DNA of 64,000 nt from an uncultured Roseivirgaceae bacterium (GCA_964551335.1 CAZKCO010000025.1:12134-76133), one strand, 5' to 3'; numbered from the stretch's first letter, positions 9,289 to 47,006 are shown. The notes: generated by a model not told the origin, from the letters alone. Numbers and translations: made by a program.

Positions 9289-9825
9289 ATGAATCGAACA
9301 ATTTTTCTATTTCTCAGCTTTGTTGGATTGATGTTTATTTTTCAGCAATGTGCTCCTTCTAAGACTATATCTACGCAAAAATCAGAAGATTACGAAGAAG
9401 ACATCAGCCGCTACCGCATACAGTATACCGATTCCATTGCCCAGACTACAGCTACCGATGATTCGGTAGTATCTAATCCGGAAGAGAGAGTCATGGTATC
9501 TACTTTGGAAACACCATACTCGGTAACTGAAGATATGTCTGAATTTTTTCAGGCGGTAGATGATTTGAACCGAGAGCGCAATGAATACCAGGGGTTTACC
9601 CTACAGGTTTACGCTGGTAATAGCCGCGAGCAGGCAAATGAGGCCAAATTAAAGGTATACGATGCCCTACCCGATTCCGAGCCAAAAGTAGCTTTTAATA
9701 CTCTTTTTCGTGTGCGCGTTGGTGAGTACAATGACCGCCTGGAAGCCCAAGAAGACTATATCGCCCTCAAACAGGTGTTCCCCAATGTTCTATTCGTACC
9801 CGCTACTTTCCGGGTAGTTAATTAA
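9289..9825 (+). CDS. SPOR-domain lipoprotein
   Basis: Lipobox FQQC; C-terminal GFTLQVYAG...FRVRVG SPOR motif. Confidence 0.85.
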   Translation: MNRTIFLFLSFVGLMFIFQQCAPSKTISTQKSEDYEEDISRYRIQYTDSIAQTTATDDSVVSNPEERVMVSTLETPYSVTEDMSEFFQAVDDLNRERNEYQGFTLQVYAGNSREQANEAKLKVYDALPDSEPKVAFNTLFRVRVGEYNDRLEAQEDYIALKQVFPNVLFVPATFRVVN

Positions 9826-9834
9826 TCGCATTCT

Positions 9835-11031
9835 ATGTCACTGCGAGATCGTATTCAGTACCTGGCCCGGGAACGCGCGGATCAGGTCATAGGCTTTCGT
9901 CGCCATTTGCACCAGCACCCCGAGCTTTCTTTTCAGGAATATAACACAGCCCGCTACGTTGCCGAACAGCTTAGCGCTTTCGGCCTGTCCCCCCAAACCG
10001 GGATTGCTGATACCGGTATAGTAGCTACTATCGAGGGAAAGAATCCTACCAGAAAAACAGTTGCCCTGCGTGCCGATATGGACGCCTTACCGATTCATGA
10101 GGCCAATAATGTGCCCTATAAATCGCAGAATGAAGGCGTTATGCACGCCTGTGGCCACGATGTTCATACATCTTCCCTGTTGGGTACTGCTTACATTTTG
10201 CAGCAACTTAGAGAAGAATTTGAAGGTACTGTTAAGTTGATCTTTCAGCCGGGCGAAGAGCGCTTTCCAGGGGGGGCTTCGCTAATGATTAAAGAAGGAG
10301 TATTGGAAAACCCCAAACCCGACAGTATGCTGGGTCAGCACGTATTGCCGCATCTTCCAGTAGGGAAGGTAGGCTTTCGGGAGGGGATGTATATGGCAAG
10401 TGCCGACGAAATCTACCTGACTATCCGTGGAAAAGGAGGACACGGGGCCATGCCAGAAAATAATATTGATCCAGTGATGATTACTGCCCAGGTGCTGGTT
10501 ACACTGCAGCAAATCATCAGCCGGTCGGCCAATCCTAAAATTCCGTCTGTCCTTTCCTTTGGTAAAGTGATTGCCGAGGGAGCTACCAATGTTATTCCGA
10601 ATGAGGTTTACGTAGAAGGTACTTTCCGCACTTTAAACGAAGAGTGGCGACACAGGGCTCACCAAAAAATCAGGCAAATTGTAAACGGTGTTTGTGAGAG
10701 CTTAGGAGGCTCAGCTGAGGTGGATATTAAAGTCGGCTATCCCTACTTACAAAATAATCCGGAGCTCACCCTGAGAACAAAACAGGCGGCAATAGAGTAT
10801 CTGGGAGAAGAAAACGTGGTAGATCTTGACTTATGGATGGCGGCTGAAGATTTTGCCTATTACACCCACCATATGAGTGCCTGCTTTTATCGTCTGGGGA
10901 CCGGTAATGAAGCCAAAGCAATAACTTCCGGAGTGCATACCCCTACCTTTGATATTGACGAACAGGCCCTGGAAATCGGACCGGGACTCATGAGTTGGCT
11001 TACTATTTCTGAACTGGCAACAATTGGTTAG
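9835..11031 (+). CDS. M20D family amidohydrolase
   Basis: HPELSFQE, RADMDALP, MHACGHD, FQPGEE, EDFA, HTPTF. Confidence 0.92.
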   Translation: MSLRDRIQYLARERADQVIGFRRHLHQHPELSFQEYNTARYVAEQLSAFGLSPQTGIADTGIVATIEGKNPTRKTVALRADMDALPIHEANNVPYKSQNEGVMHACGHDVHTSSLLGTAYILQQLREEFEGTVKLIFQPGEERFPGGASLMIKEGVLENPKPDSMLGQHVLPHLPVGKVGFREGMYMASADEIYLTIRGKGGHGAMPENNIDPVMITAQVLVTLQQIISRSANPKIPSVLSFGKVIAEGATNVIPNEVYVEGTFRTLNEEWRHRAHQKIRQIVNGVCESLGGSAEVDIKVGYPYLQNNPELTLRTKQAAIEYLGEENVVDLDLWMAAEDFAYYTHHMSACFYRLGTGNEAKAITSGVHTPTFDIDEQALEIGPGLMSWLTISELATIG

Positions 11032-11171
11032 ATGTTCAGGATATAGGCAATATTAATCAGTAATAATAAGCCTAAAAGTAGCCAATACATAAGGCGAGCG
11101 CGTTTGGATGGCTTGCCAAATAGTAGGTAATGAAACCCGTATTTCGCGCGATGTTCGTAGGGAGTTTTCAT
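11028..11171 (-). CDS. Putative 47-aa membrane protein
   Basis: Manual translation MKTPYEHRAKYGFHYLLFGKPSKRARLMYWLLLGLLLLINIAYILNI*: basic N-terminus plus one TM helix; fills the gap exactly. Confidence 0.45.
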   Translation of the reverse strand: MKTPYEHRAKYGFHYLLFGKPSKRARLMYWLLLGLLLLINIAYILNI

Positions 11172-11199
11172 GAGAACACGGATTTAGTGAAAGAACCAA

Positions 11200-11238
11200 T
11201 GTTAAGAAATTGTTAACTTAATGTTAAGAAATTGTTAC
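11200..11238. promoter_or_regulatory. Four TGTTA(A/C) direct repeats at exact 11-bp period (PhoB/PhoP-type box candidate)
   Basis: TGTTAAgaaat TGTTAActtaa TGTTAAgaaat TGTTAC at 11200, 11211, 11222, 11233. Confidence 0.6.
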
Positions 11239-12201
11239 CATAAATGCTATTCTGCACTTGAAAAAATTTGGTGGCTAAAACTGAGGCTTACCGTCATTCT
11301 TATGACTATATGCTCTCCCATTTGGGCAGTTACTCAGAACTACCGGCTCATTCTTTCCGAAAGTCCCGCTACATCCATTACCATCGGTTGGGAATTAATG
11401 GCTGGTTGTCCGGATACTCAACGGGTCTATTACGACACGGTTGATCACGCCCGGGATACTTCAGCTTACCGCTTTCAAATGCCGATTACTGCTTCTTACT
11501 TTCACCAAGGGATGGAAAATTATTTCAGCACCCTTGCTGACCTGAAACCAGATACTCGCTACTACTTTGTAATTGCCGAGGATGAGGGAATCAGTGATCG
11601 TTTCTGGTTCCAAAGCCTGAGCAATACTTCAAGCTCCTGGAAAGCCCTTTGGACTTCTTCTAATCTTCCTCAAACGCTTTATGATTGGAAAAAGCTAAGC
11701 TCACAGATTGCAGAAAGCAGTTTGGACTTTGTGTTGGCCGAAGGGTTCACTGGCTTAACCAGCGAAAAAGATTGGCGACACTGGATTCAAACCTGGCAAA
11801 AGTCTATTTCTCAATCAGGAAGAATTACTCCGCTGCTTATCGCGGGCAATATTTCCACTGACGTTCAATATTTATTTAATCATTCGAAAAAGCCGGTCAG
11901 TACCTATCGTTTGTCAGCCCATAGCATACTTCTTACCTCTGATGACAATGGAAAGCTAAAAAATCGGAGTTTGAAAAAAATCCAGCCGGGGACATTTGTT
12001 ATTCAGCACACCGCCTTTTCCCCTGTCAAAGAATCAGAAGCAATTAATCTAATTCTCACCTCATCAACCACTGGAGATGATTTTCCCCATCGATTCAATT
12101 ATCCAACAGGGGAAATGATTGTAGAATTATCTTGGATGAATGGTCATTTTAGTATACGGGCGGCCAGCGGAGAAAAAATGCTGGATGTTTTTTCTAACTA
12201 A
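11221..12201 (+). CDS. Purple-acid-phosphatase N-terminal (FN3) domain protein with degenerate metallophosphoesterase domain
   Basis: PATSITIGW, V.YDT, LADLKPDTRYYFVI...SDRFWF FN3/PAP-N motif; no canonical metal-ligand motifs downstream. Start uncertain (alternative ATG 11302). Confidence 0.7.
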   Translation: MLRNCYHKCYSALEKIWWLKLRLTVILMTICSPIWAVTQNYRLILSESPATSITIGWELMAGCPDTQRVYYDTVDHARDTSAYRFQMPITASYFHQGMENYFSTLADLKPDTRYYFVIAEDEGISDRFWFQSLSNTSSSWKALWTSSNLPQTLYDWKKLSSQIAESSLDFVLAEGFTGLTSEKDWRHWIQTWQKSISQSGRITPLLIAGNISTDVQYLFNHSKKPVSTYRLSAHSILLTSDDNGKLKNRSLKKIQPGTFVIQHTAFSPVKESEAINLILTSSTTGDDFPHRFNYPTGEMIVELSWMNGHFSIRAASGEKMLDVFSN

Positions 12202-31952: not shown

Positions 31953-32178
31953 TGTGGACTCGCTAATAAAACTCTAGCCTGCATACTGTACTTTTATCCT
32001 TACAGTAAATGCAAGATAAAAACCTACTTCAGTTAGTATCCAAATGCATGGTCCACGCACACCAAAAGGCAAAAACAAAGATTTTGTTATACTCAATATC
32101 GGTCAAATTCAATAGTAGTGTGATTTTGAGAACTTGATAATGTATTAAGTTATTGATTCATCAAATTTTGCTCTCAAT

Positions 32179-32213
32179 AAAAAAAGACTTTACACGATCG
32201 TGTGAAGTCTTTT
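32179..32213. terminator. Bidirectional rho-independent terminator
   Basis: AAAAGACTT-TACACG-AT-CGTGTG-AAGTCTTTT with A/T tails, between convergent genes. Confidence 0.8.
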
Positions 32214-32248
32214 AGAAGATTAGAAGTTTATATTCTACAACAGATCCT

Positions 32249-33625
32249 TTAGTTCGTTTGGGCCTCGGTCAGCTTTTGTTTTAGCTCTTCTATCTGAGTT
32301 TGGTATTCACGTTCTTTGCGGTGCATCTCTTCCTGAGTAGCTTGCAACTCTTCCATATTCTGCCGCATCTCTTCTTCTTGAGCTCGCATCTCCTCACTCT
32401 GCTCTTGGGCCTGCTCCAGCAAATGTTGAGTCTGTTGCATCACTCGCTGACTCTGAATATAAGCTGCCATTACTTCACCCAAACGTTCTAGAAATTCTAT
32501 CTCATGCTCCTCGAAGTTACTAAAGCTAGCTAGCTCCAAAAGCCCTTCTACCTCTTCGTTTACTATCAAAGGCACGATAATTAGTGAAGTAGGAGTAGCT
32601 TTTCCCAACCCTGAGGTAATGTTCACGTAATTAGGGGGAATTTCCGTGAAATGTAAGTATTTAGCTTCCAGGAAGGCTTGACCAACTAGACCTTCACCGG
32701 GTATAATCGTTTTCTCAATATACTTCTTTCGCTCATAGGCGTAGCAAGCCGCCAGTTGAATTGTAACTTCATCATCGCTGCTATCTACGACAAATAATCC
32801 ACCTTGATTGGCCTTCAGGTATTTGACTGTCGCTGAGATTAGCTGGTCAAACAGGTTTTCTTTACTGCCGGTATGTCGAACGATTTCAGAGATTTGAGCA
32901 ATACCTTCGGCCGCCCACTGCCGCTTACGCTCTTCGGCTTGGGCAGCTTCTAGCTCTTTAGTTTTTTGGGCATTCTCTTTTTGTTGTTTTAGCAATACTT
33001 GGTTACGTTGCTCTGCTTCTATCCGAGACTGCTCACTTTCTTTTTCAGATTGTCTCGTAATAAATATCATGCCCATTACACAACCAAATCCACCAAGAAT
33101 AGCTAGTGAAATTGTAACCGTGCTAAGCCATCCGCTTCGTAAAGGTGTGGAGTCATAAACAGAAGTATACCAAGTTTTTGTGATTGGAAAAGTAAGGATG
33201 ACAATTGAACATAAAATTATTGTAGACAATATAAAAGTCCGTTCGCGAGAATCAAAGATAACAAAGGGTATCAGCGCAAAGCTTAATTCAATTAGGTACA
33301 GACTTGGCAGAGGATCGTCGGCTGCCCCACTCAATGCAGCATTATAAGAAGCACCGAGAATGATTGGAACAATTGAAATGATTAGCCGAGAATATTTTAT
33401 GCCACCTAGATGATTAGCCCATATACATCCCAAACTCACAATGGCCCCACCTATGGGAAAAACTACCAAAGACGGAAAGTAGAACAGCGTTATAACTGTA
33501 AAAGGAATAGCAATGACAGTAGCTAAAGTGAATGCAACGATATTTGTCGGTTGCACCCTCTTTTTAATATAGTCAGGTAGATCGTCATGTAAACCGGCTT
33601 CTACAATACTTCTAAATACTGACAT
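32249..33625 (-). CDS. Membrane sensor: ~6-TM N-terminal domain, GAF domain and coiled-coil tail
   Basis: TM region; ANQGGLF, ACYAYERKK, GEGLVGQ, ITSGLG..P GAF; QSEEMRAQEEEMRQNMEELQATQEE tail typical of Cytophagales GAF proteins. Confidence 0.85.
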   Translation of the reverse strand: MSVFRSIVEAGLHDDLPDYIKKRVQPTNIVAFTLATVIAIPFTVITLFYFPSLVVFPIGGAIVSLGCIWANHLGGIKYSRLIISIVPIILGASYNAALSGAADDPLPSLYLIELSFALIPFVIFDSRERTFILSTIILCSIVILTFPITKTWYTSVYDSTPLRSGWLSTVTISLAILGGFGCVMGMIFITRQSEKESEQSRIEAEQRNQVLLKQQKENAQKTKELEAAQAEERKRQWAAEGIAQISEIVRHTGSKENLFDQLISATVKYLKANQGGLFVVDSSDDEVTIQLAACYAYERKKYIEKTIIPGEGLVGQAFLEAKYLHFTEIPPNYVNITSGLGKATPTSLIIVPLIVNEEVEGLLELASFSNFEEHEIEFLERLGEVMAAYIQSQRVMQQTQHLLEQAQEQSEEMRAQEEEMRQNMEELQATQEEMHRKEREYQTQIEELKQKLTEAQTN

Positions 33626-33929
33626 GTTTGAGTTTATTTAATAATATTAAGCCCAAAAATGCCATACTAAATGGAAAAAAACTTGCAACAATTGCAATAT
33701 ATCTCTCTAGTGTGCGATAAAGATTTTTTTTATAGAAAGTTGAAAATTAAACTCAAGAAAATGCGGAAAAAAACACTAGATACCAGTGAAGTTGAAGCAG
33801 AAATAGGAGAAAAACTATATCAAACGGCGCCACTGACCTTTATCGATAATAAACCAGTTAATCAGCAGCATGGTAATATTCATTCCAGTAATTCATAATT
33901 TGCCGATAAAATAGATTATTCAACCATTT

Positions 33930-34745
33930 CTAACTGCTAGGCTGCTCAAAAATAGAAATGTTTAATCCATCAAAAATCCATGCTGAAGGATAACATTCAG
34001 TCATTTTAGGCAGCACAATTGAACAGATACAATGATTTACCCAAAAGGAAATTGCTTTGTATTGAGTGAAGTTTTTAAAGTAACTCACCGTATAGTTATT
34101 CTTTATAATCAATTGGTTGACCTCATATACATGCAGTGGAGTTGTGAGTCCGGTACCCAGTACCTTAGAAAGAGCTTCTTTGGCTGTCCATATACGAGTA
34201 TAAAAGGACAAATCACTTTCACGGGATTCAGCTCGCAATATCTTTTCAATTGGGGTAGTCATCTGAGCAATAGAATCTAAGCTTTCATTTTTTGGGAATT
34301 CTAGATCTAAACCCATTGGATGCTCCCGCGGAAAAATAATACAGGCCCCAATGCCTCCGGTGTGAGCTAAGCTTATGTTTGGTATGGGGTGTTTGGTATA
34401 ACTGATGAGTGGTTGTCGGAAAATGCCTTTTTCAACTGCGATAGCCTTTATGTCTGTTTCTTCAAGGTAATGAGCTAAAGCGCATTTAGCCGTATACCTA
34501 CTTAACAAATATTGATGCCTCGCTCTTTCGTAGTATAGTTGGTCAAAGTGCTTCTCTTCACTAAGATGTAAATACTGATGCCTATTGCTATTTAAAACGG
34601 AAAAAGGAGGAGAGGCAAATCCTAATAAGGACCTGCCACTCCAGCCACTTCTTTGTAGTGGAATCTGCACTCCCGAAAAGTGTTGCTCTGGAACACTTAT
34701 TAAATGTGCAAAGTCCGAGGAAGCGTTTAACAAAGAATCTTTCAC
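33930..34745 (-). CDS. Sfp-type 4'-phosphopantetheinyl transferase
   Basis: YLLSRYTAK, ISLAH, MGLDLE, WTAKEALSK. Confidence 0.9.
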   Translation of the reverse strand: MKDSLLNASSDFAHLISVPEQHFSGVQIPLQRSGWSGRSLLGFASPPFSVLNSNRHQYLHLSEEKHFDQLYYERARHQYLLSRYTAKCALAHYLEETDIKAIAVEKGIFRQPLISYTKHPIPNISLAHTGGIGACIIFPREHPMGLDLEFPKNESLDSIAQMTTPIEKILRAESRESDLSFYTRIWTAKEALSKVLGTGLTTPLHVYEVNQLIIKNNYTVSYFKNFTQYKAISFWVNHCICSIVLPKMTECYPSAWIFDGLNISIFEQPSS

Positions 34746-34829
34746 ATTATAATAAGCTTGTTCCTATCAACACCTAAACAAATAAAGATGAAGTTCAGAA
34801 TACTTTATCTTTAAGATTTCTGATAAAAG

Positions 34830-35468
34830 CTAAACGCTACTGTATAACTTTTCCGACAGCTCGACACCATTGACTTTTTTGACCTCGCTGACCTGTTCGC
34901 TTTTACCTAAGCTAATCAATGCAGCTCCTGCAACAGCAATCACTACGGCGAAAAAGTAAGTAAGCGGACTCAGAATACTTTCTCGGTAAACATCTGCGTT
35001 TACTTCCGGAGCGTCTAAGAGTACGTTTAGCCCCTGCTGCCCTAAAATAATGGCATAACAGATGGCCAATGTAGCGATCAATTCACCTTTCTCTTTAAAA
35101 TCATACAGCAAGAATGGAATAATGCCCATCGCAAACTGAGAGAGATACAATGAAGTGATAACATGCTCTCCTGGTTGTATGGCGTAGGCGTGAAATAAAG
35201 TAGTAAACAATAACATCTGGAATGAACAGATAAACCTTGCAATGGCAGTTGCCCCGTAAAAGTTAAGAGCCAAAACTACGAGCGAGCCTACCAAACAGCC
35301 TAACGGATAGATTACTAATGAAGGAAAGTATAAATACAAAATACCGGAGTATATTACTCCAATTAAGAGGGTCAACAACGCTACCATATTGGTTAGTCGG
35401 ACCTTTCGCTTATGATTGGTGGACATAGCAGAGTCAACACCTAATGTCAATAAATTCATAATTAACAA
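34830..35468 (-). CDS. Stand-alone ~6-TM protein paralogous to the N-terminal membrane domain of the GAF sensor
   Basis: Shared blocks with 32249-33625: K.V..TN.VA, YFPSLV, SLYL, IPF...D..E. No cytoplasmic output domain. Confidence 0.8.
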   Translation of the reverse strand: MLIMNLLTLGVDSAMSTNHKRKVRLTNMVALLTLLIGVIYSGILYLYFPSLVIYPLGCLVGSLVVLALNFYGATAIARFICSFQMLLFTTLFHAYAIQPGEHVITSLYLSQFAMGIIPFLLYDFKEKGELIATLAICYAIILGQQGLNVLLDAPEVNADVYRESILSPLTYFFAVVIAVAGAALISLGKSEQVSEVKKVNGVELSEKLYSSV

Positions 35469-35500
35469 GATTTAGGGATGGATAAAGCAGATATTTAGAA

Positions 35501-35544
35501 CGTAAAGGGAGGGTAGTATTTTCACACCACCCTCTAGCTTTACG
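35501..35544. other. Intergenic stem-loop directly after the PKS stop codon
   Basis: CGTAAAG-G-GAGGGT...ACCCTC-TAG-CTTTACG inverted repeat; no strong U-tract. Confidence 0.55.
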
Positions 35545-35545
35545 A

Positions 35546-38500
35546 TTATTTAGTTTGAACTAACGATAAGGTGTCATCCTTCATAGCTTGGGTAAGCCGC
35601 TCTAGAACTAACTCTCGGTTACGACTCAGGAACCAATGGTCACCTTCTACCACTTCTAAGGTAAATTCCGAGCTGGTTTGAGCTTCCCACTGACGAACTT
35701 CGTCTACTAACACTACTTCATCCTGTGTAGCGGCAAAGGCGGTGATAGGACAATGCAATTTCTCCAGCTCCTCGTAGCGATAGCTCATAATCAGCGGCAT
35801 ATCCTTCCGCATCACCGGCAGAATACGCTTCAGGAATTCTACATCATCAATATAGTTCATCAAGGATAGTAATCGCTCCTCCGAGTTGGTTTCTACCGCT
35901 GTTTGGCTGATAACATCCCTCTCTTTCCACTTAAGGGTTAGCTGAGGTGCAATAGTACCAGTGATAAACAGGTGCTTGGCTTCAATACCATACTGTGCCC
36001 GAATATACCGGATCAGCTCAAAGCCAACCATACCTCCGAAGCTATGCCCCATGATGATAAACGGTTTATCTAAATAAGGACGAATTACCTGAGCCAAATC
36101 AGGAATCAGCTTGAGCATATCCTCATAGGGCTCTTCGCCACTACGGTTCTCCCGCCCCGGCAACTGGAAGGCTAACACATCAGTATTCTCAGGAGCATTG
36201 TAGATGAAGTGACTGAACATGGATGCTCCCGCACCTACCGGATGGAAACAGAATACTCGTTGCTTTACATCCTGCTGATTTCGCTTATTGCGCACTAGCC
36301 ATTTTCCTCCAACTACTTCAATATCTGCTTCGCTCGCAATTCCTGATGCATCAGCATTACCAGCTTCTGACGACTGCTTGTTCACTACAGTTTCGGTCAA
36401 TTCTTCTAGGAGTTGCTCAGCCAGCTCCATCAGGCTCGGCCCTTTGGCAATTTTCATGAGCGGGAAATTCACTTCCAGCTTCTGCTGAATCCAGTTCCGT
36501 AGCTGATTCAGCATCAGAGAGTCCAGCCCCATCGCCGATATAGAAACATCGGTTTCAATCTGATCAACGGTGGCCCCTAAAATTTTAGCCAGAGATTCGG
36601 CCAACAGGCTCCGCAGTAGTGGCACCTGTTGATCTTCAGCCGCATTTTTAACTTGGTCGGCTAGGGTAGAATTACTGTTACTTCCCCCGCCCTGCTGGGC
36701 TTCTTCCAGAAAATGAGCAAAACGTACATCCTGTTGTAAATGTGAGAAGAAACTTCTAAATCGTTGCCAATCCAAGTTCGCCGCCATTCTAACGGCTGGT
36801 TGCTGCAACAATACAGTTTCTATTTTCTGGGTAACCTGGGTTAAAGAAAGTGGCAACCAACCCTGATTCGCCAGTACATTCAGTACGTTCCCCCCCTCTT
36901 TAGACATTCCGGCGTACATTCCCAACACACCCAGGTTGATCGAAGAGCCTGCCAATCCTTGAGACTGGCGATACTGAGCCAAACGATCCAAGAAGTTGTT
37001 AGCCGAAGAGTAGTTCGACTGCCCAGGTAAACCAAATAGTGAGGATATTGAGGAAAGTGAGAGGAAAAAGTCCAGCGATGCATTCTGAGTTGCCTGATGT
37101 AAATTCCAAGCTCCCAACACTTTTGGACGAAATACTTTCATAAATCGCTCAGTATCTGTGTTCATAAGGGTAGCATCATTGAGTACGGCCGCACTGTGGA
37201 TGATACCCTTCAGCGGAGGTAAGTGCTTCTCAATGTACTCAACCACTCCATTTACTGCCCGGCTGTCGGTAATGTCCAGATTCATGGGGTACAGTTCTAC
37301 CCCCTGCTGTTTCAAATTCTCCGCAATTTGGAAGTCTCCCTGATGCTTATAGCCACTTCGACTTAATAGTACTAATCGTCTAGCGCCTTTCTCAGCCAAC
37401 CATTGGGCTAACATCAAACCGAACCCACTAGCGCCACCGGTAAGCAGGTAAGTAGCATCAGCACTAAGCTCTAGCTCCTGAGCCGGAAGTACTTCAATTT
37501 CATCATCGGTCTGCATAGTCACCACCAGCTTACCGATATGCCCTCCTTTGCTAAGTACCCGTAGGGCATCTGCCAATCGAGAAACCGGATAAACCTGATG
37601 AGGATGAACCGATAATTGCTGTTTGGTAAACAGGCTAACTACTTCCTGATACAGCCGCTTAGCCAGTTTAGGCTTCTGAAGCATCAACCGATCAACATCT
37701 ACGGCATGATACGATAAGTTTTCGCCGAAGCGCTTTAAAGCCAGCTTTGTGTCCTGGTATATATCTGCTTTACCAATCTCGATGAATCGACCAAAAGGTG
37801 CCAAACACTTAATGCTCTGGGTGATACCTTTTCCTGAAAGTGAATTCAGCACGATATCAACTCCTCGTCCTTGAGTTGCCGATCTAACCTCGTCGGCAAA
37901 TTTCAGGCTACGCGAGTCAAAAACATGTTCAACTCCTAATGAGCGCACAAATTTGCGTTTTTCTTCGGTACCGGCCGTGGCAATAATATTGGCTCCCGCT
38001 AATTTTGCTAAGCGGATTGCAGCGATTCCTACCCCTCCCGAAGCAGCATGGATCAAGACAGTATCATCTTCGCTTAACCGGGCCAGATAATTTAATGAGT
38101 AATAGGCAGTCAGGTACGCCACAGTAATGGTAGCCGCTTCTTCAAAGGAAAGATTTACGGGCTTTTTCACCACGCAGGAAGCCGGAGTCACTGTAAATCC
38201 CGCGTAGGAATTAGCCGCCCAAGCCATTACCTCATCGCCTTCAGCAAATTCGGTGACATTTTTACCTACTCGGCTGATCACTCCTGAACATTCCAATCCG
38301 AGATTTTTGCCGGCTATACCTCCCTGCACTGCTTCATCGTTAAGCAGCCCCATCACATTCATAATATCCTTGAAATTTAATCCGGCCGACCGAACTTCAA
38401 TTTCTACCGAATCGTCAGCCAATTCAGCACTAACCACTTGACGGAACTCAATACCATCCAGGGTGCCGTACTCCTTCACTGATGCTCGATAAGCTTTACC

Positions 38501-41500
38501 CCGAGCCGAGCAGGTTATAGTAGCTTGTTGCTCAGCCGATTCTTCGGTTACTGCCTGTAGTTTACGAACCAGCAACTTACCGTGTCGTAGGGCAACTTCT
38601 GGGTAGATTGGCTTTTCGACTAGAGTAAAGTTCTCGTAGAGTGTCTCAATCTCGACCTTATTTACTTTCGCCGACAAATCTACTAGACTGGTCTTAATAA
38701 AAGGAAACTCGTTCATCAAAACCCGCCCCATTCCGTAGAGTGCTGCTTGATTGATGTTAACAACTTCTTCATCAACAATACGGTCGGCACCTTGAGTAAG
38801 CAGATATAGTCTTGGTTCACTTCCGTGATTAACAATAGCTCTAAGTGCATTAGTGGTAGCCTCCGCTAACGCTTCTTGTTGCTCGTCTAGAGCCTTCAAC
38901 GAAATTTCCGGATCAAATACACTATCTAATCCCCAAAGGTACATTACCCGACGTACTTTGAAGCCTTTGCGGGTTACTTCGGCCAGTACCCGTTCAATAT
39001 CCTCCTGAGATGAAGGATTCACTCGGAAGTGAGTTGAAGAAAGCTCTTCGTAGCTCGCTCCTTTTTCAACTAGCATCGGAAGCAGATTATCACCGCTAAA
39101 TTTCTCTAGCAGGGTCTGAGTCACCCCCTGTTGATCAACGAACAGCAGGCATCCTCCGGTAGCATCGCCATTCACTCGGGTCATCGCAGTTGGCTCCGAA
39201 GTTTCGGGAGCTTTTTCCCATGTATAGGCGTACATTCCGCGATATAATTCGTTAGCCGACTCTCCTCTAGAACCCTCGATGTATTTACAGGTTAGTCCCT
39301 GAATTTCAGCGACTAAGGTTCCGTCTTCGTTCAAAATAAAGTAGTCTCCTCGCAAATTGGCATCACTAGCTTCCGTTACACGGATATAACTCCAAATCTT
39401 GGTGTTGGGCTTGCTGTGAAGTTTAAACCGCTGGATATAAACGGGTAAATAGATCCCACGTTTTTCACCCTCTCTGCTTTCTTTCGCCGCAAAAATAGCG
39501 TGCAATGAAGCGTCTAATAAAGCCGGATGGAAACCGTACTCTTCAATTCCGTGATGCAGATTCTTGCTGAGTTTGATACCGGCCAGAATCTCGCTATCCC
39601 CTTTCCACAATTGCTGAATACAACGGAATGCTTCTCCGTACTGAAGCCCTCCCTCTTTGAGTTCAACGTACAGGTTGGAAACTGAAACGGTTTCGGTAAG
39701 CCGCTCCTGAATTTCGGGTAAATTAACCGATGAAGATATGAATGAGTCACCTAAATGATTCATCACTCCTCGGGAATGCATCGTCCAGGGAGTATCATCT
39801 CCTTCGCCCTTGCTAAAGATACGGTAACTCCCTTCATCAGAAGCCACCTCCAGTCGAATGTCCATTGACTCACCTTCGTCTGGTAGAAAAAGTGCCGACT
39901 CAAAGTGAATATCTTCTAAAAACCCGAATGATTCACCAAATGAAGACTTTGCCGCGGCAAATGCTACTTCTAGGTGCCCGGTTCCCGGATAAATAACGGT
40001 ACCGTCTACTTTATGATCCTCGATATAGGGATGCACTTTCGTATCCAGCTGCAACTTCCAAATAAAATGGTTAGGATTGGCTGCCGAACGCTCTACACTA
40101 GATAAATGCGGGTGAATCACTTCGCCTAAACGTTCGTTGGCATGTTCAGGAACTTCAAACCAGTAGCGTTCGTGCTGCCAGGAGTATGCCGGAAGGTCCA
40201 CTAACGCCCCGTTCGGGTTTAGCTGCTTCCAATCAATACAATAGCCCTGAGTAAACAACATTCCTAGCGACCCCATCAGAGTAATTGCTTCATCTTCTTT
40301 TCGGCGCAAGGAGGGGACAATAAACGCCGCTTTAACAGATTTGGCTTTCAGTAGATCATTCGCCCCGATGGTTAGCACTGGGTGGGGAGCAATTTCAATG
40401 AACGTATCAAAACCATCGTCGGCCATCCGTGCCAGAGCATCAGTGAAGTAGACTGGCTCCCGTACGTTTTGGTACCAGTAGTTACTATCCAGATGTGACC
40501 CATCCTCTTGCTTACCGGTTACTGTGGAGTACAACGGAATAGTAGCTTCGCTAGGCTCCAGATGATCTAGTGATTCAATTAGCTCTGCTTTTAGCGGCTC
40601 CATATGGTGACTATGGAACGGGACATTAACCCTTAAAAAACGACAGAAGACATCTTTCTGCTCCAGTTGCTGAGCAATTTTCTCCAGCGGTTCTGAATCT
40701 CCCGAAAAGGTCAGCATGTTGGGACCGTTGATTGCTGCAATGGATACTACATCCTCAAAACCTATAATTGCCTCGCGAGCCTCTGCTACCGTAAGGGCAG
40801 CAGCCAGCATCTTGCCTTTCCCGGTAGCTCGGTTTTGCCCCCGGCTACGATGATAGATCACTTCTACCGCCTGGTCAAGCGTTAACGATCCACTGGCATA
40901 GGCGGCGGCCACTTCTCCAATAGAATGTCCTACACAACCTTCGGGAGTTACTCCCCATGATTTCCAGATTTCGGTAAGTCCGATCTGCACCGCCATGATA
41001 GCCGGTTGAGCAATCCTAGTTTCGCTTACCCGGGAAGTAGCTTCATCCCGGCTCATTTCTTCCAGCAACGACCAATCAGCTAACTGCTGGAACCGCTGGT
41101 CAATCTGTTCAATTACCTCTCGGAAAATAGACGAAGATTCAATTAACTGCTGCCCCATGGCATACCATTGAGGCCCCTGACCCGAAAAGATGAAACCTAA
41201 CTTAGGCTTATGACCTTTTTTTGCCTTCTGCTCGAACATGCCTGGCCGGGTTTCTTCCCCAAGATAGGCCTCAAGTTTTTCCCGAAGTTCTTCTTTGGTT
41301 CGAGCAGCCACAGAAAGTCGATAATCAAGTGCTGAACGGCGGGCTCCAGCACTGTAACAAATATCTGACAGGGAATTAGGTGTGTTCCCCAAATACTCAA
41401 CGTACTGGGTGACATTATCCCGGAGCGCTTCTTTAGTTTGAGCTGATACGGTAAATAATTCTACCCTTTCGGCTTCACTTCCACCGGAAATATCCTTCTT

Positions 41501-42901
41501 AGATTTAGTTTGCGGTTGATAAGCCTGTAATACAGCATGAGCATTAGTTCCACCCGCTCCGAAGGAGTTAACCCCACCAATAATAGGGTGTCCGTTTTGA
41601 GGTAAGTCAACCAGTTCGGTTGGCACTTGCAAGCGATAATCGTCAAAGGGAATCTTTGGGTTTGGATTCTCGAAGTGTAGGTTTTGGGGAACCTGCCTAT
41701 TTTTCAATACCAGTGACAATTTGATCAGACCAGCAATACCGGCGGCAGATTCTAAGTGGCCTATATTGGTTTTTACCGAACCCATCCAGCATTTTTCGTT
41801 CTCAGAACGGTTTTTACCAAATACTTCGCCGAAGGCCCGCGTCTCAATTGGGTCACCTACAGGAGTACCCGTTCCGTGGGCTTCAATGTAGGCTACGTTT
41901 TTTGGGTCTACTCCAGCCTTTTCGTAAGCAGTTTCCAGCATCGCTACCTGAGAAGAAAAACTCGGAACTGTAAAACCTTCTTCGGTATGACCATCTTGAT
42001 TCACGGCAGTTCCGAGAATAGTGGCGTAGATATGATCACCATCAGCCTCTGCTCTCGATAGCGGCTTGAGCATAACAACTCCGCAACCCTCACTACGAAC
42101 GTAACCATTGGCACGGCTATCAAAAGTTTTGCAATAGCCATCAGGAGACAGAAAATTACCCTTCGACATCATGATCGACGACTCAGGGCGAAGCAAGGCA
42201 TTAACTCCACCGGCCAAGGCTTGGTCGCTCTCGCCTGACCAGATACTCTGACAAGCCAGATGCACCCCCACAAGAGAAGAAGAGCAGGCCGTATCTAGGC
42301 TAACGCTAGGGCCTTTTAGGTTATAAACGTAAGAGATACGGTTGGCAATGGCGGTAAGCGAAGACCCCATCGGTACGTGGGGGGTAATGGCGTTACGCTG
42401 CTCGGTTGAGACTTGAATATCCCAGTAGTCGTTCATAAAAACACCCATAAATACCGCCGTTTTGGTGTCAGATACAGATTCCATCGGAATTCCAGCATCT
42501 TCTAACGCCTGGTAGGTTACCTCCAGCAGCATTCGTTGTTGCGGATCAATGCATTGGGCTTCAGCAGGAAACATACCAAAAAATGCAGGATCAAAGTGAC
42601 TTATATCTTTGACAAATCCGCCTTTTTTGTTCTTAATTTTACCAGCCTTATTGTTATCCGGATCGTAAAATTTTTTCAAATTCCAACGATCGGGCGGCAC
42701 ATCGGTGATGGCGTTTTTTCCTTCGGAAAGCAATTTCCAGAAAGACGATGGATCATTCACTTCGCCCGGGAAGCGACACCCAATGCCAACAATGGCAATG
42801 GGCTCGCGAGGATTGGTAGAATCATCCTTCCGGGTGGAATCGTTCTCTACAGACACAGCTGTCGCAGGAACACCATGGGTGGGGGCACTAAATGTAGACA
42901 T
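35546..42901 (-). CDS. Single-module highly reducing type I PKS (KS-AT-DH-ER-KR-ACP-TE)
   Basis: KS DTACSSS/HGTGT/NIGH; AT GHSIG/VPFHS; DH HKVDGTVIYP and HPALLD; ER LIHAASGGVG; KR GGASGFG/HSAAVLND/YSSAN; ACP GLDSL; TE GHSFG/GDHW. Confidence 0.95.
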   Translation of the reverse strand: MSTFSAPTHGVPATAVSVENDSTRKDDSTNPREPIAIVGIGCRFPGEVNDPSSFWKLLSEGKNAITDVPPDRWNLKKFYDPDNNKAGKIKNKKGGFVKDISHFDPAFFGMFPAEAQCIDPQQRMLLEVTYQALEDAGIPMESVSDTKTAVFMGVFMNDYWDIQVSTEQRNAITPHVPMGSSLTAIANRISYVYNLKGPSVSLDTACSSSLVGVHLACQSIWSGESDQALAGGVNALLRPESSIMMSKGNFLSPDGYCKTFDSRANGYVRSEGCGVVMLKPLSRAEADGDHIYATILGTAVNQDGHTEEGFTVPSFSSQVAMLETAYEKAGVDPKNVAYIEAHGTGTPVGDPIETRAFGEVFGKNRSENEKCWMGSVKTNIGHLESAAGIAGLIKLSLVLKNRQVPQNLHFENPNPKIPFDDYRLQVPTELVDLPQNGHPIIGGVNSFGAGGTNAHAVLQAYQPQTKSKKDISGGSEAERVELFTVSAQTKEALRDNVTQYVEYLGNTPNSLSDICYSAGARRSALDYRLSVAARTKEELREKLEAYLGEETRPGMFEQKAKKGHKPKLGFIFSGQGPQWYAMGQQLIESSSIFREVIEQIDQRFQQLADWSLLEEMSRDEATSRVSETRIAQPAIMAVQIGLTEIWKSWGVTPEGCVGHSIGEVAAAYASGSLTLDQAVEVIYHRSRGQNRATGKGKMLAAALTVAEAREAIIGFEDVVSIAAINGPNMLTFSGDSEPLEKIAQQLEQKDVFCRFLRVNVPFHSHHMEPLKAELIESLDHLEPSEATIPLYSTVTGKQEDGSHLDSNYWYQNVREPVYFTDALARMADDGFDTFIEIAPHPVLTIGANDLLKAKSVKAAFIVPSLRRKEDEAITLMGSLGMLFTQGYCIDWKQLNPNGALVDLPAYSWQHERYWFEVPEHANERLGEVIHPHLSSVERSAANPNHFIWKLQLDTKVHPYIEDHKVDGTVIYPGTGHLEVAFAAAKSSFGESFGFLEDIHFESALFLPDEGESMDIRLEVASDEGSYRIFSKGEGDDTPWTMHSRGVMNHLGDSFISSSVNLPEIQERLTETVSVSNLYVELKEGGLQYGEAFRCIQQLWKGDSEILAGIKLSKNLHHGIEEYGFHPALLDASLHAIFAAKESREGEKRGIYLPVYIQRFKLHSKPNTKIWSYIRVTEASDANLRGDYFILNEDGTLVAEIQGLTCKYIEGSRGESANELYRGMYAYTWEKAPETSEPTAMTRVNGDATGGCLLFVDQQGVTQTLLEKFSGDNLLPMLVEKGASYEELSSTHFRVNPSSQEDIERVLAEVTRKGFKVRRVMYLWGLDSVFDPEISLKALDEQQEALAEATTNALRAIVNHGSEPRLYLLTQGADRIVDEEVVNINQAALYGMGRVLMNEFPFIKTSLVDLSAKVNKVEIETLYENFTLVEKPIYPEVALRHGKLLVRKLQAVTEESAEQQATITCSARGKAYRASVKEYGTLDGIEFRQVVSAELADDSVEIEVRSAGLNFKDIMNVMGLLNDEAVQGGIAGKNLGLECSGVISRVGKNVTEFAEGDEVMAWAANSYAGFTVTPASCVVKKPVNLSFEEAATITVAYLTAYYSLNYLARLSEDDTVLIHAASGGVGIAAIRLAKLAGANIIATAGTEEKRKFVRSLGVEHVFDSRSLKFADEVRSATQGRGVDIVLNSLSGKGITQSIKCLAPFGRFIEIGKADIYQDTKLALKRFGENLSYHAVDVDRLMLQKPKLAKRLYQEVVSLFTKQQLSVHPHQVYPVSRLADALRVLSKGGHIGKLVVTMQTDDEIEVLPAQELELSADATYLLTGGASGFGLMLAQWLAEKGARRLVLLSRSGYKHQGDFQIAENLKQQGVELYPMNLDITDSRAVNGVVEYIEKHLPPLKGIIHSAAVLNDATLMNTDTERFMKVFRPKVLGAWNLHQATQNASLDFFLSLSSISSLFGLPGQSNYSSANNFLDRLAQYRQSQGLAGSSINLGVLGMYAGMSKEGGNVLNVLANQGWLPLSLTQVTQKIETVLLQQPAVRMAANLDWQRFRSFFSHLQQDVRFAHFLEEAQQGGGSNSNSTLADQVKNAAEDQQVPLLRSLLAESLAKILGATVDQIETDVSISAMGLDSLMLNQLRNWIQQKLEVNFPLMKIAKGPSLMELAEQLLEELTETVVNKQSSEAGNADASGIASEADIEVVGGKWLVRNKRNQQDVKQRVFCFHPVGAGASMFSHFIYNAPENTDVLAFQLPGRENRSGEEPYEDMLKLIPDLAQVIRPYLDKPFIIMGHSFGGMVGFELIRYIRAQYGIEAKHLFITGTIAPQLTLKWKERDVISQTAVETNSEERLLSLMNYIDDVEFLKRILPVMRKDMPLIMSYRYEELEKLHCPITAFAATQDEVVLVDEVRQWEAQTSSEFTLEVVEGDHWFLSRNRELVLERLTQAMKDDTLSLVQTK

Positions 42902-42929
42902 AATTTAGGTAGTTAATCTTACAATTTTG

Positions 42930-42956
42930 TACAACTATCAATATAGAATAGTTGTA
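42930..42956. promoter_or_regulatory. Perfect 9-bp inverted repeat with 9-bp spacer upstream of the PKS
   Basis: TACAACTAT-N9-ATAGTTGTA, 29-55 bp before the PKS ATG. Confidence 0.5.
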
Positions 42957-43151
42957 GATCCAATAATTTCTTACTTAGGTATAAGCGATTTTAGCTTAGG
43001 AAATAGTAGTAAAGGGCAATGGTAGTACGTCTCTCGTCAGTGTATGAATACAAACCTATACTTTGTGATAATGAAAAAATAACCGCATACGGAACTTTGC
43101 TTACATTCGTAAGAAAAAGCTTATTCAGGTATATATAACCTAAAATATAAT

Positions 43152-43176
43152 TATTATAGTTATATATACTATAATA
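43152..43176. promoter_or_regulatory. Second 9-bp inverted repeat in the PKS upstream region
   Basis: TATTATAGT-N7-ACTATAATA; lies in very AT-rich DNA, so chance occurrence is possible. Confidence 0.3.
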
Positions 43177-43463
43177 TTAATTATAATACATTTCGCAAAC
43201 TGAACATATGCTAGTCTCTAACCAATTTACAATGATGCATTATCGAGATGTAAGTTTTTTTTGACTTATTCATATTTTTCTGATAATAGAATAAGGTTCA
43301 TCAATTGAGTCACTCAGGTTTTGTTTTTAGGAATTATCTCTTAAATAATCTACCAAAAGGTATTTTTCATTATTCAAATAGTACCAATATTTGAAAAATA
43401 TTCTACGATTTTTTCTAATCAGAATACCCGAGGGATTTATTGATGTCTACAACGTTTTGGAAA

Positions 43464-45677: not shown

Positions 45678-47006
45678 TTAATTAGTAAACCGAATGAAGG
45701 CAAACATCTGCCATTGAAAATAAAGGTTATTGAGAAAGACCAAAGTCAGAAATAACGCTAGTAAGGAATTGGCTTGAATCTGCTTCTGCCCTTGTATGAA
45801 TTTTTCCAGTCCTAAGGCGACCATAACGATCAGGAAGAATGTCCATTCACAGGCATAAAGCATAATATCATCACCATACAGAAAAAAGATTACGGCATTA
45901 GCCAGCAAACTCACAATTGTAATTTTCACAATTGGTGAGTTAAACAACCGGTATTTTATAATGGCCCAAGTGGCTAGACCCAGAATTGCTGTCCAGATTA
46001 GAAGTCCCGGCCAGGCTATTGCGGGATAATCTAGTAAATTACTTTCTCGGAAAGAAACTAAAAGTATATCCGGGTTCCGTAGGTGCTGTACCAGTTTAGG
46101 CAGAGGCGCTAGTATATTAAAATAAAAAAGGTGCTCGCCGAGGTTTATCAGCTTGACTCCCGCTTCCGTGAACGTTTCGGGCAAGAAAAGGTACTGGATG
46201 TCCTTCAGAGGTTCTCTAGGACGAGACAGTAACCAGAAGTTTAGTGCTACCTTCTGAATAACTACCAACCCCAGAAACAAGGCCACCGACTGAGCCAGGA
46301 ACTTGACAATGAACGTTTGTTTCGATCGACTCTTTACATCACTCCACCGAGGTAGCCATTGGCCGTTGCTTCCCTTTATTAGCTTAGCGTAAGTTATAGC
46401 GATGACAATAAATGCGGCATTCACGAGGTTTATCCCGACTAAATACACCGATATTATAGCCCAAACCCATACTGGCGGCTTACGCACCACCGCAATCAGC
46501 AGCGCAATAAGTCCGGCAGCCGAAAAAATATAGGTGTCAGGTATGGTAGAAAATATCAGGTTGGTCGATGTTAATCCAAACAGGCCGGCGTAAAGTAGGC
46601 TTCGGGGCCAAGGTACAGCCAGTTGGTAAAATAAATACGCACATCCTAGCACGCATAGTGCCCCAAATAGAGCGCAAAACAATGATGTTACTACATAAGG
46701 GTCAGAGATCACCTTATTTACCAATCTGGCAGCAGGGTTAAACATAACAGGGAAGAGGGGGTGAAAAAGAGCTCGTTTATAGTACCCCCTGGTGCTGAAT
46801 AACTTCAAAGCCAAAAACTCAGAATCAGCCTGAAAATACAGATCATTCTCATGGTAGCCTGCACCTCGGTCTCGTTCTATTGAAAGATAATGGATGCCGG
46901 TAATGAAATAAATACTGAAAAAAAGTATTGTTAATCCTGCTAAGCTAAAAATCTTATTTCGGTGATTAGAAATAAGCTTGCGAGGCGAAGTTACAGCCTT
47001 TTGCAT
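45678..47006 (-). CDS. Polytopic membrane protein, GT-C-glycosyltransferase-like
   Basis: About 10-12 TM helices with periplasmic-loop motifs HPLFP and PDTYIFS. Confidence 0.55.
   Translation of the reverse strand: MQKAVTSPRKLISNHRNKIFSLAGLTILFFSIYFITGIHYLSIERDRGAGYHENDLYFQADSEFLALKLFSTRGYYKRALFHPLFPVMFNPAARLVNKVISDPYVVTSLFCALFGALCVLGCAYLFYQLAVPWPRSLLYAGLFGLTSTNLIFSTIPDTYIFSAAGLIALLIAVVRKPPVWVWAIISVYLVGINLVNAAFIVIAITYAKLIKGSNGQWLPRWSDVKSRSKQTFIVKFLAQSVALFLGLVVIQKVALNFWLLSRPREPLKDIQYLFLPETFTEAGVKLINLGEHLFYFNILAPLPKLVQHLRNPDILLVSFRESNLLDYPAIAWPGLLIWTAILGLATWAIIKYRLFNSPIVKITIVSLLANAVIFFLYGDDIMLYACEWTFFLIVMVALGLEKFIQGQKQIQANSLLALFLTLVFLNNLYFQWQMFAFIRFTN

Follow-up and report, generated by a model that had tools for sequence, protein, structure and literature searches.

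The window analysed here is a stretch of 64,000 nucleotides from an uncultured marine Roseivirgaceae bacterium of the Cytophagales (GCA_964551335.1 CAZKCO010000025.1:12134-76133). On its minus strand lies a cassette that joins a large polyketide synthase (PKS) to two proteins sharing a domain of six transmembrane (TM) helices, here called TM6. In the direction of transcription, the cassette consists of genes for a type I PKS, a stand-alone TM6 protein, an Sfp-type 4'-phosphopantetheinyl transferase (PPTase) and a TM6-GAF-coiled-coil protein, and it is closed by a hairpin and a T-run. A first-pass annotation of the window had described these four open reading frames (ORFs) as co-oriented, and all four were found on the minus strand where it had placed them. 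Its statement that the locus lacks a fatty-acyl-AMP ligase (FAAL), an acyltransferase gene or a tailoring enzyme also holds: none lies near the window genes, and none is conserved in ~40 related loci.

The proteins of the cassette

The PKS (35546-42901, minus strand; 2451 aa) is assigned by its Pfam domains, its motifs and its match to mycocerosic acid synthase (MAS) to the fully reducing, single-module type I PKSs that resemble MAS and fatty acid synthase (FAS). Pfam orders its domains as ketosynthase (KS), acyltransferase (AT), dehydratase (DH), enoylreductase (ER), ketoreductase (KR), acyl carrier protein (ACP) and thioesterase (TE), the last matching PF00975 at 8e-33. The KS-AT-DH-ER-KR-ACP series that characterizes the class lies on one polypeptide with its active-site motifs intact. 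The translation contains DTACSSS, EAHGTGT and NIGH in the KS, GHSIGE in the AT, HxxxGxxxxP in the DH, SGGVG in the ER, GGASGFG and SxxxxxxxxxxNYxxAN in the KR, and GLDSL in the ACP. The closest solved relative is MAS (PDB ID: 9d2z), which covers residues 33-2171. The NCBIfam models Pks2, aligned end to end, and 'PKS_plus_SDR' also align to the protein, both under their cut-offs.

In the specificity code of AT domains, a Phe at the third position of the VPFH motif predicts malonyl-CoA. The motifs GHSIGE...VPFH are identical in nearly all of the 30 PKS relatives examined, and the predicted extender unit is malonyl, not methylmalonyl. Because of this motif, the expected product is an unbranched, fully saturated acyl chain, which the TE would free as a free acid. 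Such release of a free fatty acid is suggested by the domain set, the intact motifs and the TE together. Since the cassette holds no other module and no loading domain, the single module is presumably used iteratively. An identity as MAS proper was considered and set aside on the VPFH/GHSIGE motifs of the AT, the presence of the TE and the absence of a FAAL nearby.

The PPTase (33930-34745, minus strand; 271 aa) carries an ACPS/4'-PPT superfamily domain (PF01648, 5e-10) and is encoded with its carrier-protein synthase, as befits the Sfp type, whose members have about 230-270 aa. Its NCBIfam matches to AusB and HetI are weak and under their cut-offs.

The stand-alone TM6 sensor-domain protein (34830-35468, minus strand) has 212 aa when read from a TTG codon; public gene calls start at the ATG at 35459 and give 209 aa. 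Its AlphaFold2 (AF2) model shows six long helices arranged as a bundle (pLDDT 90.6, pTM 0.83). It has no Pfam or NCBIfam match, and a Pfam search of TM6 up to an E value of 5 returned nothing except a 20-residue Sensor_TM1 match at 0.027. Similarly, no fold relative of TM6 was found in the PDB at E < 0.1, the best Foldseek match having an E value of 0.19 and a TM-score of at most 0.34. An enzyme or transporter fold for TM6 thus found no support in PDB, Pfam or NCBIfam matches.

The TM6-GAF-coiled-coil sensor (32249-33625, minus strand; 458 aa) contains a GAF domain (GAF_2, 2e-12) and a conserved C-terminal helix of EE heptads, AQEEEMRQNMEELQATQEEM. In its AF2 model (pLDDT 87.6), six TM helices are followed by a long helix, the GAF domain and a C-terminal helix of 85 residues (373-457). 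Foldseek recovered only GAF domains as matches (5e-7, TM-score normalized to the target 0.78), and Pfam recognizes no output domain in the protein. The first ~200 residues are homologous to the 212-aa stand-alone TM6 protein (31% identity over 124 aa, E 6e-18). The earlier description of the two TM6 domains as paralogous is thus borne out as regards homology. The two are no recent duplicates, though, and belong to two deep TM6 lineages.

Co-occurrence of the synthase and TM6

To survey the association starting from the PKS, 151 genomes were sampled evenly from the family to which the window genome belongs. A full-length PKS orthologue with a TE (43-69% identity) is present in 12 of them. The PPTase gene is adjacent to it in every case, which argues that this PPTase is dedicated to the PKS, and a TM6 gene is adjacent in ten. 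Clustering of all neighbouring ORFs revealed no other conserved neighbour of these orthologues. A scan of named genomes added 15 further PKS-PPTase-TM6-GAF loci, among them those of Rhodocytophaga aerolata, Xanthocytophaga flavus, Sporocytophaga, a Catalimonadaceae isolate and several metagenome-assembled genomes (MAGs). From the sensor side, eight TM6-GAF homologues on long contigs (47-61% identity to the window protein) were looked up. All seven with 48-61% identity lie in PKS cassettes, whereas the one at 47% and the window genome's own 47% paralogue lie outside such cassettes. The TM6-GAF subfamily of the window thus appears to belong to PKS cassettes.

The gene order is not fixed. TM6 genes lie downstream on the same strand, divergently upstream (G015) or upstream as a four-gene array (G006), and the PPTase gene stands before, after or opposite the PKS gene. 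The first-pass annotation had proposed this synteny comparison and had allowed that PKS homologues elsewhere might never lie near the six-TM family. That possibility decisively fails: many genera keep the PKS, PPTase and TM6 genes side by side, in several arrangements, and the searches from the PKS and from the sensor agree on this. In one locus (L043:985-16666, G116:C4), two tandem full-length PKS copies with 52-54% identity to the window enzyme precede a single PPTase gene and a TM6-GAF gene.

Orthologues of the stand-alone TM6 protein, found by tblastn and a profile hidden Markov model (HMM), where a word-based search gave two matches only, occupy the same position after the PKS gene in L054 (94% identity), L051 (43%), L104 (39%) and L105 (40%). 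In G003 and G015, they are unlinked from the PKS gene; in G015, the gene precedes those for an NtrC-type regulator and a kinase. The stand-alone protein fits the role of a sensor subunit or partner.

To place TM6 more widely, its occurrence outside the cassettes was considered. Of the 151 family genomes, 45 encode the domain, frequently more than once and with the genes arrayed in tandem. The TM6-GAF-helix family numbers more than 7800 proteins in public data, all named only 'GAF domain-containing'. Profile HMM and Pfam scans found full-length TM6 alone and in GAF-helix, GAF-helix-PAS and GAF-GAF arrangements. It was also found by profile HMM in TM6-PAS-PAS-HisKA-HATPase (4e-64), TM6-SpoIIE (PP2C; 1e-52), TM6-HisKA-HATPase (9e-20) and TM6-HisKA-HATPase-REC (1e-13) proteins. 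Members unlinked to a PKS adjoin genes for single REC proteins (with a 4-bp overlap), NtrC-type and LuxR-type response regulators and kinases. The proposal that these are membrane sensors gains support from the fusion of the same domain to histidine kinases, a PP2C phosphatase, and PAS and GAF modules. Because it is joined to such varied output modules and lies beside response regulators and kinases, TM6 is best read as a shuffled signal-input domain.

Beside the PKS, TM6 occurs alone and as TM6-GAF-helix in the window, as TM6-GAF-helix-PAS in G017 and as a fusion to a histidine kinase and REC domain in G006. Catalinimonas alkaloidigena (L110) has an extra TM6-PP2C protein with DUF6272 and SiaC-type partners. 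That TM6 is constant beside the PKS while the output module varies argues that these proteins are linked to the PKS through their input side. In the Catalinimonas locus (L110:1724-14231), genes for the TM6-SpoIIE (PP2C) protein, the DUF6272 protein and the SiaC-family protein come directly after PKS-PPTase-TM6-GAF and resemble a partner-switch module.

As the window TM6-GAF protein has no recognizable output domain, its C-terminal helix was examined as a candidate route for the signal. Within the TM6-GAF family, no stretch is more conserved than this heptad helix, AQEEEMRQNMEELxATQEEM. A search of the window genome (G000) with the pattern EE[LMI]x4EE[LMI]x4EE[LMI] found it in only nine long ORFs, five of them encoding GAF-helix proteins and four encoding large CheB-/CheR-like proteins. 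They include ORFs at C3:141134-145873, C16:5264-10750, C54:19217-23371 and C60:4090-9780, and further ORFs at C5:134913-136577, C23:37598-39313, C29:26596-28635 and C32:50974-52506. The five GAF-helix proteins have no kinase and differ in their inputs (TM6, Cache-like/HAMP-like or other multi-TM). The four large proteins (1400-1900 aa) have CheB-/CheR-like motifs followed by the heptads, and the full-length ones run on into HisKA/HATPase-type kinase sequence. For one of the four, Pfam confirmed a CheB-CheR fusion, which also carries the heptads and a PAS domain. The shared heptads suggest a common signalling route among the nine ORFs, and a coiled-coil or methylation link from the TM6-GAF helix to the CheB-CheR kinases is conceivable. 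The methylation consensus of methyl-accepting chemotaxis proteins is Glx-Glx-x-x-Ala-Ser/Thr, and the heptad MEELQAT bears a resemblance to it, although a resemblance only. The window TM6-GAF protein has no match to the signalling domain of these proteins (PF00015) and falls outside their family.

Transcription signals and cassette boundaries

In an alignment of four PKS upstream regions (A4: window, L054, L051 and L104), a -7-like box, TAGGTTTG (43051-43058, minus strand), is conserved in all four. It matches TAnnTTTG, the -7 promoter consensus of Bacteroidota, and is the only minus-strand TAnnTTTG in the gap upstream of the PKS gene; it is likely to be the PKS promoter. A palindrome of the form TTAC-N4-GTAA, TTACGAATGTAAG (43100-43112, minus strand), lies ~50 bp upstream of the box in invariant columns of the alignment and is a candidate binding site for a regulator. 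Both elements are conserved across the four cassettes, even though the PKSs have diverged to ~81% identity (L051). A scan for sigma-70-type promoters was uninformative (30 sites versus 25 expected), the consensus of Bacteroidota being different.

The strong terminator that had been reported at 32.2 kb is real. An intrinsic-terminator-like element (32175-32213, minus strand; palindrome I2) closes the cassette with a 9+4-bp hairpin (32182-32213) followed by a T-run, with a centroid fold of -12.9 kcal/mol. An 11-bp GC-containing hairpin with no clear T-run lies 12 nt past the PKS stop codon (35509-35534, minus strand) and could lower the share of transcripts that continue into the TM6 and PPTase genes. 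The 304-bp gap between the PPTase and TM6-GAF genes also holds a hairpin and a T-run, and a second TAnnTTTG (33947-33954), 320 nt before the TM6-GAF start, is a possible separate -7 box. A single transcript is for these reasons not assured, and the TM6-GAF sensor may be transcribed separately. Elsewhere, the gap between PPTase and sensor ranges from ~30 to 560 bp.

The cassette is present or absent as a whole (31953-43463, minus strand), an 11.5-kb unit between a DUF2797 gene and a MATE gene. In a genome of the same genus (G120, locus L112), the DUF2797 gene (9563-10354) directly adjoins the MATE gene (10391-11722). That genome keeps the flanks of the window, with PYC, hemA, an epimerase and DUF2797 on one side and MATE and orf323 on the other, and no PKS orthologue was found in it. 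The 11.5 kb are thus a clean indel. In a more distant relative (L104), the cassette sits between the same flanks as in the window. The cassette is not flanked by convincing repeats, direct or inverted, of the kind expected at the ends of a mobile element.

Two neighbouring genes were considered as members of the cassette and rejected. The MATE pump, as a dedicated exporter, was set aside because its gene lies beside DUF2797 in G120 where the cassette is missing; in the other loci of the family, the PKS has no MATE match next to it. The second gene (45678-47006, minus strand), between the MATE gene and orf323, encodes a polytopic membrane protein of 442 aa. This protein has no Pfam match and no similarity to FadL, is absent from other cassettes, and has no match in the 20-kb syntenic stretch of G120.

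In a few other loci, further genes follow the sensor. A PadR-like small protein and an ~815-aa envelope-stress protein with PspC, LiaF-TM, toast-rack and DUF2807 regions are encoded after TM6-GAF in L109 (11673-14479). The same PspC-type protein follows the sensor in L034 (16896-19680), preceded by a 112-aa ORF, and an 817-aa and 114-aa gene pair in L040 (2344-5150) matches in size only. These neighbours may reflect either local synteny or a functional link.

A candidate lipid-sensing module and its alternatives

The conservation described above makes it highly probable, and well supported, that the PKS-PPTase pair and the TM6 sensors are functionally coupled. The most economical reading of this coupling is a make-and-sense module, in which TM6 would perceive the saturated, malonyl-derived fatty acid made by the PKS, or the effect of that fatty acid on the membrane; to this reading we give an even chance. 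Binding of the product by TM6 is suggested through guilt by association. In such a module, the private Sfp-type PPTase would prime the PKS, which would act iteratively in the manner of a type I fatty-acid synthase, adding malonyl units with full reduction in each cycle, until the TE frees an unbranched saturated fatty acid. The co-inherited TM6 proteins would serve as inner-membrane sensors whose six-helix bundle perceives the lipid or a membrane change caused by it. The window TM6-GAF protein would relay the signal through its cytoplasmic GAF domain to the C-terminal EE-heptad helix. This helix would then act on a separately encoded partner, and the candidates for it are the four hybrid kinases (CheB-CheR-heptad-PAS) that the same genome encodes. 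The stand-alone TM6 protein would most likely pair with the TM6-GAF sensor or tune it.

Several observations weigh against a module of this kind. About seven PKS loci have no TM6 gene (Splendidivirga, Persicobacter, Flammeovirga, Saccharicrinis, Methylobacter, a Planctomycetaceae MAG and a Bacteroidota MAG). In Flammeovirga, Persicobacter, Saccharicrinis and G092, PKS-PPTase has been kept although its surroundings lack a TM6 gene, and beside the Methylobacter PKS neither a PPTase nor a TM6 gene was detected. Because PKS-PPTase is kept without TM6 in several genomes, the product has a role that is independent of the sensor. The four invariant polar residues of TM6 (N28, R80, D125 and E128 in the numbering of the GAF protein) lie near the cytoplasmic face according to the topology reading, a position that fits ligand binding and signal transmission alike. 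Gaps of 250-560 bp between PPTase and sensor are frequent, so that co-transcription is not general. Much of the synteny may also stem from vertical inheritance within two or three lineages, and independent events are few, with at least three changes on the PKS tree.

In favour of the module, the PKS and TM6 trees agree at the top level: TM6 clade A accompanies PKS clade I, and the distant TM6 clade B accompanies PKS clade IIa. No TM6 goes with PKS clade IIb (Flammeovirga, Persicobacter, Saccharicrinis and G092), whose very short branches across different families and orders indicate that PKS-PPTase also spreads by transfer without TM6. In a gammaproteobacterial Methylobacter sp. MAG (L063) and in Persicobacter diffluens (L060), PKSs of 52-54% identity each adjoin an RND pump of the AcrB type. 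These loci and the near-identical PKSs found in Saccharicrinis, Flammeovirga and G092 point to horizontal transfer of the synthase. A distant PKS relative (L081) is alphaproteobacterial.

The adjacency of sensor and biosynthetic genes would be equally expected if TM6 were a cluster-situated regulator that senses an unrelated external or membrane cue, for instance temperature, a host lipid or envelope stress, and switches the PKS on or off. The PKS would then make an accessory lipid with a structural or protective role, or a precursor that is completed by enzymes encoded elsewhere. The existence and spread of PKS-PPTase pairs without TM6 in clade IIb agree with this explanation. So do the conserved palindrome in the PKS promoter region, which would suit a DNA-binding regulator, and the NtrC-type, LuxR-type and single REC response regulators adjoining TM6 members elsewhere. 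The PadR-PspC envelope-stress genes after the sensor in L109 and L034, with the size-matched pair in L040, can be read in the same way. However, the window sensors have neither a DNA-binding nor a kinase output, and their transmitter helix is family-wide, so that an output specific to the PKS is not evident. In addition, regulation of this kind does not readily account for a TM6 domain that stays constant beside the PKS while its output module changes, or for the dedication of a whole TM6-GAF subfamily to PKS cassettes. On balance, cluster-situated regulation is a serious alternative, although the less probable one.

A stronger form of the make-and-sense reading is true quorum sensing, in which a secreted fatty acid would accumulate with cell density, re-enter across the outer membrane and be read by TM6. 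In the CqsA/CqsS (Vibrio) and LqsA/LqsS (Legionella) alpha-hydroxyketone systems and in the RpfF/RpfC system for DSF, the synthase of a lipid-like signal is encoded beside a polytopic receptor whose sensing takes place inside the membrane, and the layout of the window cassette is the same. Entry from outside is hinted at by a single case, Splendidivirga corallicola BMA10 (L034:11219-16331, G003:C12). Here, a FadL/TodX channel gene (429 aa) lies between genes for TM6 proteins of 204 aa and 219 aa, the latter followed by a TM6-GAF gene (466 aa). The 219-aa and 466-aa proteins are orthologues of the two TM6 proteins of the window, and PKS-PPTase is on another contig. FadL/TodX proteins are outer-membrane channels for hydrophobic molecules, and this arrangement, which also speaks for the make-and-sense reading in general, hints at a hydrophobic ligand that reaches TM6 from outside. 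A general partnership of FadL with TM6 was rejected, to the detriment of the sensing reading, as the pairing was found in Splendidivirga only and tblastn was negative in the other loci and in the window genome. The same Splendidivirga locus has an AraC regulator and MacB/FtsX permeases upstream and PspC downstream.

The RND pumps beside the PKS in Persicobacter and Methylobacter would also suit secretion, and the cassette is a within-genus accessory indel, as are many signalling 'dialect' loci. Against this, the MATE pump next to the window PKS occurs without the cassette in G120 and provides no dedicated exporter, no exporter is conserved across the loci, and a signal that is no more than a saturated fatty acid would have little specificity. 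Quorum sensing in this full sense is therefore regarded as doubtful. Finally, that TM6 merely scaffolds the PKS at the membrane, or flips or inserts its lipid, and senses nothing related to the PKS is very improbable: the related MAS was deposited under a molecule name that describes it as membrane-associated, and a stand-alone TM6 without a signalling domain directly follows the PKS in five cassettes, but the fold of TM6 matches no transporter or enzyme, fusions of the domain to kinase, phosphatase, PAS and GAF modules recur, and most of the more than 7800 members of its family have no PKS linked to them.

Most speculative is a complete cell-to-cell lipid system of Cytophagales, with an FAS-like PKS as synthase, TM6 as receptor and a methyl-accepting-type helix leading to CheB-CheR hybrid kinases. 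We think such a system distinctly unlikely; if it existed, it would place a chemotaxis-style adaptation layer on a quorum-sensing input in this order. To our knowledge, no autoinducer synthase/receptor pair is established in Bacteroidota, and a literature search found no description of a PKS and GAF-sensor system in Cytophagales or Bacteroidetes; one on CheB-CheR fusions likewise yielded no pertinent paper. Should the PKS product prove to be the ligand, the cassette would be the first lipid-signal synthase/receptor pair in this phylum, as far as the literature searched and general knowledge go. A ligand class would then be assigned to one branch of an orphan family that comprises the TM6-GAF proteins and the kinase- and phosphatase-fused forms, and TM6 would be a new membrane sensor domain, unnamed in current domain libraries. 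Carriers of the cassette are in culture (Rhodocytophaga aerolata KACC 12507, Xanthocytophaga flavus NT2B1 and Catalinimonas alkaloidigena), and Splendidivirga corallicola BMA10 provides a natural 'unlinked' control. The G006-type TM6-kinase-REC protein and the TM6-PP2C protein of Catalinimonas offer ready-made outputs. Even under cluster-situated regulation, the cassette would represent a minimal lipid pathway, PKS plus PPTase, that is widespread among Bacteroidota of sea and soil.

Comparison with known systems clarifies which parts of the cassette have precedents. Like MAS and the MAS-like/FAS-like iterative type I PKSs (PDB IDs: 9d2z, 5bp1/5bp4), the window PKS carries its domains from KS to ACP in the same order on one polypeptide. 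Unlike MAS, an enzyme of Actinomycetota, it belongs to a host in Bacteroidota, has a C-terminal TE and a private PPTase, has neither a FAAL nor a PapA5-type off-loading partner, and bears an AT predicted to use malonyl. With CqsA/CqsS, LqsA/LqsS and RpfF/RpfC, the cassette shares the adjacency of a synthase to polytopic membrane proteins; its synthase is a 2451-aa PKS, however, and not a pyridoxal phosphate-dependent acyltransferase or a crotonase. The window TM6 proteins also differ from the receptors CqsS, LqsS and RpfC in having no HisKA or HATPase domain by Pfam. Kinase-fused TM6 occurs only in other genomes, of which G006 has a cassette variant with a TM6-HisKA-HATPase-REC hybrid kinase comparable to these receptors.

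In Clostridium acetobutylicum, an orphan single type I PKS makes fatty-acid-like clostrienoic acid/clostrienose, which regulates differentiation of the producer (PMC5686105), and this enzyme is a precedent for an endogenous signal made by a PKS. In contrast to the saturated chain predicted here, what it makes is a hydroxylated triene, reduced only in part and afterwards glycosylated; the phylum is different, and no adjacent membrane receptor is cited for it. On the sensor side, a close parallel is RsbK of Bacillus cereus, a CHASE3-HAMP-GAF-S-helix protein in which the helix after the GAF domain is methylated by a CheR-like enzyme (PMC4574943). The window TM6-GAF protein departs from RsbK in having a six-TM bundle and not CHASE3 as its input, and no histidine kinase or REC domain after the helix. 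As in RsbK of the RsbK-RsbM system, a helix follows the GAF domain, here a conserved one and a putative methylation target, and the CheB-CheR fusion kinases encoded in the window genome bear the same heptads as this helix.

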